Shown: positions 332-4,683, numbered from the stretch's first letter. The stretch: 64,000 bases of DNA from Escherichia coli (GCF_048403405.1 NZ_CP183129.1); one strand, 5' to 3'. Notes: generated by a model not told the origin, from the letters alone. Numbers and translations are program-made.

Positions 332-1216
332 ATGAAGCCTTTTTTGCGCTGGTGTTTCGTTGCGACAGCACTTACGCTTGCAGGATGCAGTAATACTTCC
401 TGGCGTAAAAGTGAAGTCCTCGCGGTACCATTGCAACCGACTTTACAGCAGGAAGTGATTCTGGCACGTATGGAACAAATCCTTGCCAGTCGGGCTTTAA
501 CCGATGACGAACGCGCACAGCTTTTATATGAGCGCGGAGTGTTGTATGATAGTCTCGGTCTGAGGGCATTAGCGCGTAACGATTTTTCGCAAGCGCTGGC
601 AATCCGACCGGATATGCCTGAAGTATTCAATTACTTAGGCATATATTTAACGCAGGCAGGCAATTTTGATGCTGCCTATGAAGCGTTTGATTCTGTACTT
701 GAGCTTGATCCAACTTACAACTACGCGCACTTGAATCGCGGGATCGCATTATATTACGGCGGTCGTGACAAGTTAGCGCAAGATGATCTGCTGGCGTTTT
801 ATCAAGACGATCCCAATGATCCTTTCCGTAGTCTGTGGCTTTATCTCGCCGAGCAGAAGCTCGATGAGAAGCAGGCTAAAGAAGTGTTGAAACAGCACTT
901 CGAAAAATCGGATAAGGAACAGTGGGGATGGAACATTGTCGAGTTCTACCTGGGCAACATTAGCGAACAAACGTTAATGGAAAGGCTCAAGGCGGACGCA
1001 ACGGATAACACCTCGCTCGCTGAGCATCTCAGTGAAACCAACTTCTATTTAGGTAAGTACTACCTAAGTCTGGGGGATTTGGACAGCGCCACGGCACTGT
1101 TCAAACTGGCGGTTGCCAACAACGTTCATAACTTTGTTGAGCACCGATACGCATTGTTGGAATTATCGCTCCTGGGCCAGGACCAAGATGACCTGGCAGA
1201 ATCGGACCAGCAATAG
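332..1216 (+). CDS. nlpI: TPR-repeat outer-membrane lipoprotein NlpI
   Basis: ORF track 294 aa; lipobox LTLAGC near N-terminus; sequence recognised as NlpI; synteny pnp-nlpI-deaD. Confidence 0.95.
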
Positions 1217-1322: not shown

Positions 1323-1403
1323 ATGAAAATTGCTGATCAATTTCATGATGAGTTATGTAGACTGGCCGCCATTAATTTTGAGGCACACGTACTACATGGC
1401 TGA
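1323..1403 (+). CDS. yrbN: small protein YrbN (26 aa), overlapping the deaD start
   Basis: Hand translation ATG..TGA gives [26 protein letters not shown]; matches my recollection of the K-12 small protein yrbN upstream of deaD; below the ORF-track size cutoff. Confidence 0.5.
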
Positions 1404-3285
1404 ATTCGAAACCACTTTTGCAGATCTGGGCCTGAAGGCTCCTATCCTTGAAGCCCTTAACGATCTGGGTTACGAAAAACCATCTCCAATTCAGGCAGAG
1501 TGTATTCCACATCTGCTGAATGGCCGCGACGTCCTGGGTATGGCCCAGACGGGGAGCGGAAAAACTGCAGCATTCTCTTTACCTCTGCTGCAGAATCTTG
1601 ATCCTGAGCTGAAAGCACCACAGATTCTGGTGCTGGCACCGACCCGCGAACTGGCGGTACAGGTTGCTGAAGCAATGACGGATTTCTCTAAACACATGCG
1701 CGGCGTAAACGTGGTTGCCCTGTACGGCGGCCAACGTTATGACGTGCAATTACGCGCCCTGCGTCAGGGGCCGCAGATCGTTGTCGGTACTCCGGGCCGT
1801 CTGCTGGACCACCTGAAACGTGGCACTCTGGACCTCTCTAAACTGAGCGGTCTGGTTCTGGATGAAGCTGACGAAATGCTGCGCATGGGCTTCATCGAAG
1901 ACGTTGAAACTATTATGGCGCAGATCCCGGAAGGTCATCAGACCGCTCTGTTCTCTGCAACCATGCCGGAAGCGATTCGTCGCATTACCCGCCGCTTTAT
2001 GAAAGAGCCGCAGGAAGTGCGCATTCAGTCCAGCGTGACTACCCGTCCTGACATCAGCCAGAGCTACTGGACTGTCTGGGGTATGCGTAAAAACGAAGCA
2101 CTGGTACGTTTCCTGGAAGCGGAAGATTTTGATGCGGCGATTATCTTCGTTCGTACCAAAAACGCGACTCTGGAAGTGGCAGAAGCCCTTGAGCGTAACG
2201 GCTACAACAGTGCCGCGCTGAACGGTGACATGAACCAGGCGCTGCGTGAGCAGACACTGGAACGACTGAAAGATGGTCGTCTGGACATCCTGATTGCGAC
2301 CGACGTTGCGGCCCGTGGCCTGGACGTTGAGCGTATCAGCCTGGTAGTTAACTACGATATCCCGATGGATTCTGAGTCTTACGTTCACCGTATCGGTCGT
2401 ACTGGTCGTGCGGGCCGTGCTGGCCGTGCGCTGCTGTTCGTTGAGAACCGTGAGCGTCGTCTGCTGCGTAACATTGAACGCACCATGAAGCTGACCATTC
2501 CGGAAGTTGAACTGCCGAACGCAGAACTGCTGGGCAAACGTCGTCTGGAAAAATTCGCCGCTAAAGTACAGCAGCAGCTGGAAAGCAGCGATCTGGATCA
2601 ATACCGTGCACTGCTGAGCAAAATTCAGCCGACTGCAGAAGGTGAAGAGCTGGATCTCGAAACTCTGGCCGCCGCACTGCTGAAAATGGCACAGGGTGAA
2701 CGTACTCTGATTGTTCCGCCAGATGCGCCGATGCGTCCGAAACGTGAATTCCGTGACCGTGATGACCGTGGTCCGCGCGATCGTAACGACCGTGGCCCGC
2801 GTGGTTACCGTGAAGATCGTCCGCGTCGTGAACGTCGTGATGTTGGCGATATGCAGCTGTACCGCATTGAAGTGGGCCGCGATGATGGTGTTGAAGTTCG
2901 TCATATCGTTGGCGCGATTGCTAACGAAGGTGACATCAGCAGCCGTTACATTGGTAACATCAAGCTGTTTGCTTCTCACTCCACCATCGAACTGCCGAAA
3001 GGTATGCCGGGTGAAGTGCTGCAACACTTTACGCGTACTCGCATTCTCAACAAGCCGATGAACATGCAGTTACTGGGCGATGCACAGCCGCATACTGGCG
3101 GTGAGCGTCGTGGCGGTGGTCGTGGTTTCGGTGGCGAACGTCGTGAAGGCGGTCGTAACTTCAGCGGTGAACGCCGTGAAGGTGGTCGTGGTGATGGTCG
3201 TCGTTTTAGCGGCGAACGTCGTGAAGGCCGCGCACCGCGTCGTGATGACTCTACCGGTCGTCGTCGTTTCGGTGGTGATGCGTAA
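1396..3285 (+). CDS. deaD: cold-shock DEAD-box ATP-dependent RNA helicase DeaD/CsdA
   Basis: ORF track 1330..3285; start moved to ATG 1396 ([13 protein letters not shown]...) for a 629-aa product; DEAD-box motifs ([22 protein letters not shown]); RG/RD-rich C-terminal tail. Confidence 0.95.
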
Positions 3286-3310
3286 TCATCGCTAAACAGC
3301 GAACACAATC

Positions 3311-3390
3311 TGTAAAATAATATATACAGCCCCGATTTTTACCATCGGGGCTTTTTTTCTGTCTTTTGTACTCGTGTACTGGTACAGTGC
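3311..3390 (+). promoter_or_regulatory. mtr control region: TyrR-box-like TGTAAA-N6-TATACA (about 3311-3328) and TrpR-operator-like GTACTCGTGTACTGGTACAG (about 3368-3390)
   Basis: Motifs read directly from the sequence; mtr is known to be controlled by TyrR and TrpR; the assignment of these exact sites is inference. Confidence 0.4.
3329..3358 (+). terminator. rho-independent terminator downstream of deaD
   Basis: GC-rich hairpin CCCCGAT...ATCGGGG followed by a T-run. Confidence 0.6.
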
Positions 3391-3438
3391 AATACATAAC
3401 AACGCAGTCGCACTATTTTTCACTGGAGAGAAGCCCTC

Positions 3439-4683
3439 ATGGCAACACTAACCACCACCCAAACGTCACCGTCGCTGCTTGGCGGCGTGGTGATTATCGG
3501 CGGCACCATTATTGGCGCAGGGATGTTTTCTCTGCCTGTGGTCATGTCCGGGGCGTGGTTCTTCTGGTCAATGGCGGCGCTGATCTTTACCTGGTTCTGT
3601 ATGCTGCATTCCGGCTTGATGATTCTGGAAGCTAACCTGAATTACCGAATCGGTTCTAGCTTTGACACCATCACCAAAGATTTGCTGGGCAAAGGCTGGA
3701 ATGTAGTCAATGGCATTTCCATTGCCTTTGTGCTCTATATCCTGACTTACGCCTATATTTCTGCCAGCGGTTCGATTCTGCATCACACCTTCGCGGAGAT
3801 GTCGCTGAACGTCCCTGCACGGGCAGCGGGTTTTGGTTTTGCACTACTGGTGGCGTTTGTGGTGTGGTTGAGCACCAAAGCGGTCAGCCGGATGACGGCG
3901 ATTGTGCTGGGGGCGAAAGTTATTACCTTCTTCCTCACTTTCGGTAGCCTGCTGGGACATGTGCAGCCTGCGACATTGTTCAACGTCGCCGAAAGCAATG
4001 CGTCTTATGCACCGTATCTGTTGATGACCCTGCCGTTCTGTCTGGCGTCGTTTGGTTATCACGGTAACGTGCCAAGCCTGATGAAGTATTACGGCAAAGA
4101 TCCGAAAACCATCGTGAAATGCCTGGTGTACGGTACGCTGATGGCACTGGCGCTGTATACCATCTGGTTGCTGGCGACGATGGGCAACATCCCTCGTCCT
4201 GAGTTTATTGGCATTGCCGAGAAGGGTGGTAACATTGATGTGCTGGTACAGGCATTAAGCGGCGTGCTGAACAGCCGTAGCCTGGATCTTCTGCTGGTCG
4301 TGTTCTCAAACTTTGCGGTAGCGAGTTCGTTCCTTGGCGTAACGCTGGGTTTGTTTGACTATCTGGCAGATCTGTTTGGTTTCGACGACTCGGCTATGGG
4401 CCGTTTGAAAACAGCGTTGCTGACCTTTGCCCCGCCTGTTGTGGGTGGCCTGCTGTTTCCTAACGGATTCCTGTACGCCATTGGTTATGCTGGCTTAGCG
4501 GCTACCATCTGGACGGCAATTGTTCCGGCGCTGTTGGCCCGCGCATCGCGTAAACGCTTTGGTAGCCCGAAATTCCGCGTCTGGGGCGGCAAGCCGATGA
4601 TTGCGCTGATTCTGGTGTTTGGCGTTGGCAACGCACTGGTGCATATTTTATCGAGCTTTAATTTGCTGCCGGTGTATCAGTAA
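3439..4683 (+). CDS. mtr: tryptophan-specific permease Mtr
   Basis: ORF track 414 aa; polytopic membrane protein recognised as Mtr; synteny after deaD. Confidence 0.93.

Follow-up and report, generated by a model that had tools for sequence, protein, structure and literature searches.

Long "shadow" open reading frames (ORFs) in the codon-aligned antisense frame of codon-biased genes are a known annotation artifact. ORFs embedded antisense in annotated genes have also been proposed as genes in EHEC, including ano (PMC5960689), laoB (PMC5810103), and a set of three genes (PMC9927249), with these cases resting on RNA-seq or Ribo-seq signals together with phenotypes. The DEAD-box RNA helicase DeaD (CsdA) has roles in ATP-dependent RNA unwinding, growth in the cold, and assembly of the 50S ribosomal subunit, and secondary RNA-binding sites have been proposed for it (PMC1616957). 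Full-length E. coli DeaD is reported to phase-separate, in a study that did not dissect its C-terminal tracts (PMC12758526), and the disordered C-terminal regions of P. aeruginosa RhlE1 and RhlE2 reportedly modulate how these helicases bind RNA and phase-separate (PMC11260450).

Here we analyzed a 64,000-nt stretch of E. coli DNA (the window; all coordinates are counted from its first letter) and found the region at 2700-3285 to be the 3′ third of deaD (csdA). Our main reading, to which we assign a probability of about 0.93, is that this deaD is an ordinary gene with a repeat tail that rarely varies in length, and that the long ORF on its opposite strand is a by-product of codon bias. The antisense ORF is alike in mechanism to the shadow ORFs described above and is the longest example in this window (an open run of 439 codons). 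It resembles the EHEC cases in being embedded antisense in an annotated gene; however, it is known from sequence alone, is polymorphic for stop codons, and evolves unconstrained in its own frame. DeaD shares with RhlE1, RhlE2, and the DeaD condensates a basic, low-complexity, fast-evolving C-terminal extension on a conserved helicase core, but differs from the RhlE extensions in that two low-complexity tracts flank a folded RNA-binding domain.

Identity and domain organization of deaD

The gene had been named deaD in an earlier note on this DNA, and all five Pfam domains, synteny, and annotation agreed with that name (Table 1). An 801-nt query across the region matched at 90% identity or more in 5,425 of 5,426 complete E. 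coli genomes, where it is annotated as deaD, and was 100% identical in strain 4621. The seven RefSeq records inspected had the locus order nlpI-yrbN-deaD-mtr. The RecA-like core of the DeaD/CsdA subfamily was represented by the DEAD and Helicase_C domains; DeaD_dimer, the DbpA-type domain, and DeaD_C were found in that order, each above its curated cut-off, and both the domain order and the orthologous nlpI-deaD-mtr locus were those of the subfamily. Two PDB structures cover parts of DeaD itself, 5GI4 reaching to about aa 445 and 5B88 spanning aa 481-564, with the 5B88 entry "ATP-dependent RNA helicase DeaD" matched at E = 3.6e-50. Based on the Pfam architecture, the E. coli matches, and the synteny, the gene is therefore deaD/csdA and the window is part of an E. 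coli chromosome.

Table 1. Features of the deaD locus in the 64,000-nt window
Feature	Position (nt)	Residues (aa)	Strand	Remarks
deaD (csdA) CDS	1396..3285		+	629 aa plus stop; ATP-dependent DEAD-box RNA helicase; ATG at 1396; protein ends in RRRFGGDA
DEAD domain, PF00270		30-196		Pfam E = 3.3e-52
Helicase_C, PF00271		232-340		Pfam E = 2.5e-32
DeaD_dimer, PF25399		374-443		Pfam E = 8e-18
Low-complexity linker LC1	2737..2841	448-482	+	R/D/P-rich; between the 5GI4 and 5B88 structures
Tandem 24-nt pair	2752..2799		+	RDRDDRGP / RDRNDRGP; 79% identical (repeat search)
TAC codon (Tyr471)	2806..2808	471	+	nearly all E. coli have GAC (Asp); rare allele in the window
DbpA-type RNA-binding domain, PF03880	2860..3069	489-558	+	Pfam E = 1.3e-20; folded, not low-complexity
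TTA codon (Leu559)	3070..3072	559	+	minus-strand TAA; upstream limit of the open antisense frame
DeaD_C, PF12343, "C-terminal disordered region"	3097..3282	568-629	+	Pfam E = 9.2e-12; profile positions 1-62 of 62
Imperfect 33-nt (11-codon) periodic repeats	3098..3228		+	F(G/S)GERREGGR(G/N); TRF and repeat search
deaD intrinsic terminator	3328..3360		+	9-bp stem with 6 GC pairs, then T-run; terminator scan
Antisense ORF, 425 aa	1750..3027		-	GTG start at 3027; codon-aligned with deaD; spurious
Antisense ORF, 110 aa	2976..3308		-	across the RG tail; 21% P, 20% R, 17% S; no Pfam family; spurious
Alternative-frame ORF, 71 aa	3080..3295		+	across the tail; V/A-rich; spurious

When compared with DeaD/CsdA of K-12 (WP_001295553.1), the window was found to carry the same gene of 629 aa with the same flanking genes and domain order, and the tail DNA of the two was 98.6% identical. 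The differences were at residue 471, which is Asp in K-12 and Tyr in the window, and at codon 379, which is CTA in K-12 and CTG in the window. The exact 61-mer around the Tyr471 codon occurred in 4 of 5,415 genomes. The RNA-binding and dimerization domains were full-length matches to their Pfam families (PF12343, PF03880, and PF25399) with no notable difference, and the description of the DeaD_C family already covers the tail of the window. The locus thus matches known DeaD/CsdA and Pfam DeaD_C and represents ordinary, already-known biology; nothing here changes existing knowledge of DeaD, and the value of the analysis is mostly practical.

The region at 2700-3285 had been described as a low-complexity tail of DeaD. 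The repeats on which this description was based are there; however, the region is not a single tail but a linker, a folded DbpA domain, and a tail. Both low-complexity segments are absent from 5GI4 and 5B88, and the DeaD_C tail is in no solved structure. This absence and the Pfam name of the family point indirectly to intrinsic disorder of the tail. The residues R, G, E, and D make up 77% of the linker (net charge +5) and 81% of the R/G/E-rich tail (net charge +8), which has 20 G and 19 R in 62 aa and four GERR units. RG-type motifs were clustered in the tail (1 RGG, 3 GGR, 3 RG, and 6 GR) and were interleaved with E/D, so that the tail is a GERR-type variant with no classic tri-RGG box. By analogy with work on DeaD and related helicases, the linker and tail may act as non-specific RNA-binding or condensate-promoting extensions.

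Repeat tracts and length variation

Every repetitive peptide that had been quoted for the 3′ end of deaD was present, and the repeats were detected by TRF, by repeat search, and in comparison with shuffled sequences. TRF identified 2.9 copies of a 33-nt period at 3098-3192 (72% matches, score 106), and the repeat search identified three 44-nt copies at 3107-3228 that were 75-86% identical. The alternative that these apparent repeats are a chance product of R/G/E/D composition and CGT/GGT/GAA codons, with no true repeat structure, draws on the extreme composition of the tail and on the finding that codon-shuffled tails were nearly as autocorrelated (maximum of about 0.51 compared with 0.565 observed). 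The periodicity was nevertheless above that of the codon shuffles both in the tail (P = 0.018) and in the linker (lag-24 autocorrelation z = 3.9, P = 0.0014), and the TRF score, the recurrence of the GERREGGR peptide unit in register, and the gain or loss of whole units in natural indels likewise argue against chance, which we regard as extremely unlikely. The repeat periodicity is modest but real.

A census of the 5,425 E. coli genomes was performed with three 216-nt queries, representing the linker, the tail, and the helicase core as a control; matches were sorted by BLAST identity bands, in which indels of 3-9 nt are inseparable from SNPs. None of the 5,425 genomes fell below 95% identity or 80% coverage for the helicase-core control. 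The linker was below 95% identity in 11 genomes (0.2%), while the tail was at 90-95% identity in 162 genomes and below 80% coverage in 2 more (about 3.0%). A +12-nt tail allele, which encodes a 633-aa protein with an extra EGGR, accounted for 161 genomes (including strains 042 and PCN033), and its insertion is a near-duplicate of the adjoining 12 nt. In FXCREC035, an in-frame deletion of 132 nt between two GCGTCGTG copies was found to shorten the protein to 585 aa; the junctions of this allele and of the +12-nt allele both lie within the 3098..3228 repeats. The weakest linker match, strain F1053, had lost exactly one 24-nt unit and thus encodes a 621-aa DeaD. All indels aligned here were in frame and at repeat units. 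The alleles therefore include +4 aa in about 3% of E. coli genomes and -44 and -8 aa in E. coli complete genomes, to which the protein databases add +30 aa in one E. coli protein and +21 to +26 aa in Salmonella proteins.

Protein comparisons gave a similar distribution. Among the 120 best DeaD clusters (E. coli, Shigella, Salmonella, and E. marmotae), about 19 indel events were counted in the 108 low-complexity residues and 4 in aa 1-440, with no indels in the DbpA RNA-binding domain. Several of the indels in the protein database were whole-unit duplications of 21-30 aa, and some of the singleton variants stem from metagenome or Logan contigs, where errors of assembly may be the cause. In 134 family representatives at greater distance, what follows the RNA-binding domain was 0 to 296 aa long (median 46) and had no conserved sequence. 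Overall, the two repeat tracts are where length changes of deaD occur, and the comparison of DeaD C-terminal length across strains that the earlier note had suggested located the variation in the tail and the linker. The same note had called the region a possible hot-spot for length variation; the placement of the indels in the repeat tracts and their absence from the core bear this out, but "hot-spot" is an overstatement, as about 97% of the 5,425 E. coli genomes, like the typical Salmonella protein, have exactly 629 aa and most variants share one +12-nt allele. At this frequency of the 629-aa form, the variants are rare and mostly inherited.

The junction sequences suggest that the indels arose by slipped-strand mispairing or unequal recombination: the imperfect in-frame 24-nt and 33-nt units may occasionally misalign during replication or recombination, sequence would then be gained or lost in frame with junctions at repeats or microhomology, and purifying selection would keep the 629-aa form predominant. 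A different view is that diversifying selection acts on the tracts as a contingency (phase- or length-variable) locus, with tail length tuned rapidly between strains. The confinement of in-frame indels to the repeat tracts, the tolerance and transmission of the +4-aa allele in 161 genomes, and the wide differences in tail length between genera are consistent with this view. However, the tracts contain only 2-4 units, which are imperfect (72-86% identity) and in this differ from contingency repeats; the tails of the predominant 629-aa proteins are near-identical; the sharing of a single allele by most variant genomes is consistent with one inherited event; and no on/off variants with a shifted frame were observed among the complete genomes. 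The deaD tracts thus have neither the many near-perfect units nor the frequent length change and frame switching of contingency loci, and we consider it very unlikely that they are one. It is also unlikely, though less so, that the natural in-frame tail and linker alleles are non-neutral, altering RNA-binding or condensate behavior and growth under cold or stress, and that the tracts would serve as a slow evolutionary tuning knob. The natural in-frame variants provide a ready allelic series for studies of the influence of DeaD's disordered regions on RNA binding or condensates.

The open frame antisense to deaD

The 425-aa antisense ORF was recovered exactly as the earlier note had listed it. 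Only 328 of its 1,278 nt were found to lie within 2700-3285; three quarters of the ORF is over the helicase core, about 100 nt over the linker, and none over the RG tail. A codon-aligned antisense frame can be closed only by sense TTA, CTA, or TCA codons. Since the antisense codons are in register with deaD, closure can occur only where deaD itself uses one of these three, and its 629 codons include 3 TTA, 0 CTA, and 0 TCA. This usage is strongly biased, with CTG encoding 57 of the 67 Leu residues and CGT or CGC encoding 77 of the 78 Arg residues. Stops in the antisense frame were detected only at 1579-1581, 1750-1752, and 3070-3072.

Codon usage was evaluated with the other 65 long ORFs of the window as the reference. 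When DeaD was recoded with window-average usage, 14 antisense stops were expected and the longest run was 143 ± 45 codons, with a probability of 1.5e-4 for a run of 439. When instead the three TTA codons of deaD were shuffled among its Leu positions, the mean longest run was 318 codons, and the observed run was to be expected (P = 0.10). The rate of TTA/CTA/TCA fell with codon bias across the 66 ORFs (Spearman rho = -0.69), and other genes of the window had open antisense runs of 230-372 codons. Thus, the codon bias of deaD is a sufficient explanation of the antisense open run. The repetitive sequence had been proposed as a further source of spurious ORFs in the region. This holds for the 110-aa and 71-aa ORFs across the tail, which are the only ones that the low-complexity tail accounts for, and does not hold for the 425-aa ORF, which is due to codon bias over the helicase core.

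The opposing interpretation is that the 425-aa ORF is a real overlapping gene embedded in deaD, like ano and laoB of EHEC. In its favor are the length of the ORF, its open state in many E. coli strains, the still longer versions in Klebsiella (484 aa) and Cronobacter (468 aa), and its entry as a hypothetical protein in a few database records. Counter to this interpretation, the divergence from a Klebsiella-like locus was almost all at third codon positions of deaD, which are first positions of the antisense codons (10, 6, and 123 substitutions at deaD codon positions 1, 2, and 3 over the ORF). Over the same codons, DeaD was 96.9% identical to that of Klebsiella compared with 72% for the antisense translation, and the corresponding values for Cronobacter were 94.9% and 70.8%. 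The frame is also not kept open within the species. A synonymous change from CTG to CTA at deaD codon 379 creates an antisense stop in K-12 MG1655, such that the run is 439 codons in the window and at most 259 in K-12. No fewer than 1,310 complete genomes, or at least 24% of those of E. coli, carry the exact K-12 61-mer with this CTA, and in Salmonella the antisense stops are elsewhere, at codons 140 and 488. No conservation independent of deaD was therefore seen in these comparisons, and the ORF was found neither to be kept open nor to be under purifying selection in its own frame.

The composition of the ORF was in agreement with these findings. The codon log-likelihood of the ORF under sense versus antisense models was antisense-like at -0.44 bits/codon, compared with more than +0.14 for every one of the other 65 long ORFs, and its amino acid composition was odd (14% Thr, 10% Phe, and 10% Gln, with Lys, Pro, and Met each below 1%). 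The ORF matched no Pfam family in the Pfam search. A crude consensus scan of 1600-3500 detected no minus-strand sigma-70-like site, and inspection of the sequence upstream of the GTG at 3027 revealed no strong Shine-Dalgarno. The terminator scan found 4 candidates compared with 1.6 ± 1.1 in shuffles. Two of the four represent the genuine deaD terminator, detected once per strand, and a terminator-like hairpin on the minus strand within deaD (2576-2556) is no more than chance would produce. Nothing was annotated on the minus strand under deaD in the seven RefSeq records inspected, and the accessible parts of the supplements of an E. coli antisense overlapping-gene survey listed no candidate in deaD. 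Finally, the database calls of the ORF coincided with broken deaD assemblies (see below). An overlapping gene is on this evidence a next to negligible possibility, and low-level translation of the antisense frame is much less likely than the non-neutral length alleles considered above. The earlier judgment that the ORF is spurious is upheld by the codon bias, the third-position divergence, and the K-12 stop: the 425-aa ORF is not a gene and should stay unannotated.

Origin of the antisense-protein entries in databases

A search of 5.8 billion proteins returned only 23 matches to the antisense protein, among which the sole carrier of a Pfam domain was DeaD itself. All nine matches that were traced to their loci were found to lie antisense to deaD. 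Seven of these nine were natural Enterobacteriaceae deaD loci, and five of the seven were checked for assembly breaks: an E. coli scaffold, a Klebsiella-like scaffold, K. variicola CAG:634, Cronobacter dublinensis 582, and a Salmonella Bovismorbificans draft. In all five, (i) an N-run or contig end was present in or at the deaD RG tail; and (ii) deaD was uncalled, with the antisense ORF being the only gene called between mtr and nlpI. The remaining two of the nine were P0019 (locus L007), from an error-rich E. coli-like assembly, and P0010 (locus L011), from an assembly of bisulfite-converted reads with 25% GC. The weak matches P0019-P0022 (38-43% identity), of which P0019 was the one traced, had first been taken as possible distant homologs; they and P0010 are not independent homologs.

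These loci show the route by which the antisense protein entered databases, which the earlier note had not foreseen: the tail repeats break short-read assemblies, and the broken deaD then loses to the intact antisense ORF in gene calling. The link between the repeat tail and the artifact is therefore an indirect one. The practical consequence is that the database entries are wrong-strand calls at a deaD broken by a gap in its own repeat tail. Short-read and metagenome assemblies recurrently break in the deaD tail, and such a break can drop a core gene from annotation and introduce a false protein family instead. As a separate observation, reading the deaD strand of the Klebsiella-like scaffold (L005) past its 100-N tail gap was found to continue in a V/A-rich translation similar to that of the 71-aa alternative-frame ORF.

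Length and start variation in DeaD

Four singleton E. coli DeaD proteins retrieved by the protein database search (P0024-P0027) were found to carry in-frame tandem duplications of 200, 113, 60 and 33 aa, which map to about positions 1930-3190 of the window. The 113-, 60- and 33-aa duplications are located in the DeaD core. That of P0024 (200 aa) extends across the C-terminal part of the protein, and its junction falls within the RG tail. For at least the 60-aa duplication, the flanks share a RALL microhomology. These large duplications could be real rare events or assembly artefacts.

DeaD is 651 or 646 aa long in many database entries, because an upstream in-frame TTG (1330) or ATG (1345), respectively, was taken as the start in place of the RefSeq start, ATG 1396. 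Within the R/D-rich linker, codon 2806-2808 of the window deaD is TAC (Tyr471) in place of the GAC (Asp) of other E. coli; the exact 61-mer with this TAC was detected in only 4 of 5,415 genomes, including strains 4621, MS 69-1 and TUM1226.

Open frames across the tail and elsewhere in the window

In L005, a Klebsiella-like scaffold, the deaD-strand translation that follows a 100-N gap in the tail (L005 1033-1223, minus strand) is V/A-rich and remains open beyond the normal stop of deaD. This reading and the ORFs listed for the window itself suggest that several reading frames run across the tail without a stop. Spurious antisense ORFs like that of deaD are also to be expected at five other long, codon-biased ORFs of the window (see table).

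Features near the deaD start and long ORFs with codon-aligned antisense open runs
Feature	Position	Remark
yrbN	1323-1403	Small gene, 26 aa in RefSeq; overlaps deaD start
Upstream in-frame extension of deaD	1330-1395	Ahead of RefSeq ATG at 1396
Long codon-biased ORF	40771-42102	Antisense run, 242 codons
Long codon-biased ORF	43370-45664	Antisense run, 372 codons
Long codon-biased ORF	59255-60673	Antisense run, 233 codons
Long codon-biased ORF	61036-62448	Antisense run, 295 codons
Long codon-biased ORF	62463-63950	Antisense run, 312 codons

Outliers in the database searches

Each deaD-segment search of the E. coli genomes returned one plasmid-borne match and one genome with two places, and left 1 of the 5,426 complete genomes with no match to the segment. 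Public protein collections also included 'proteins' called on (i) L011 (Logan ERR3578257), an assembly of bisulfite-converted reads with 25% GC in which the deaD locus is still recognisable with G-to-A changes; and (ii) L007 (GCA_002230845.1), an error-rich assembly. Both sets resemble distant homologues at 38-60% identity.
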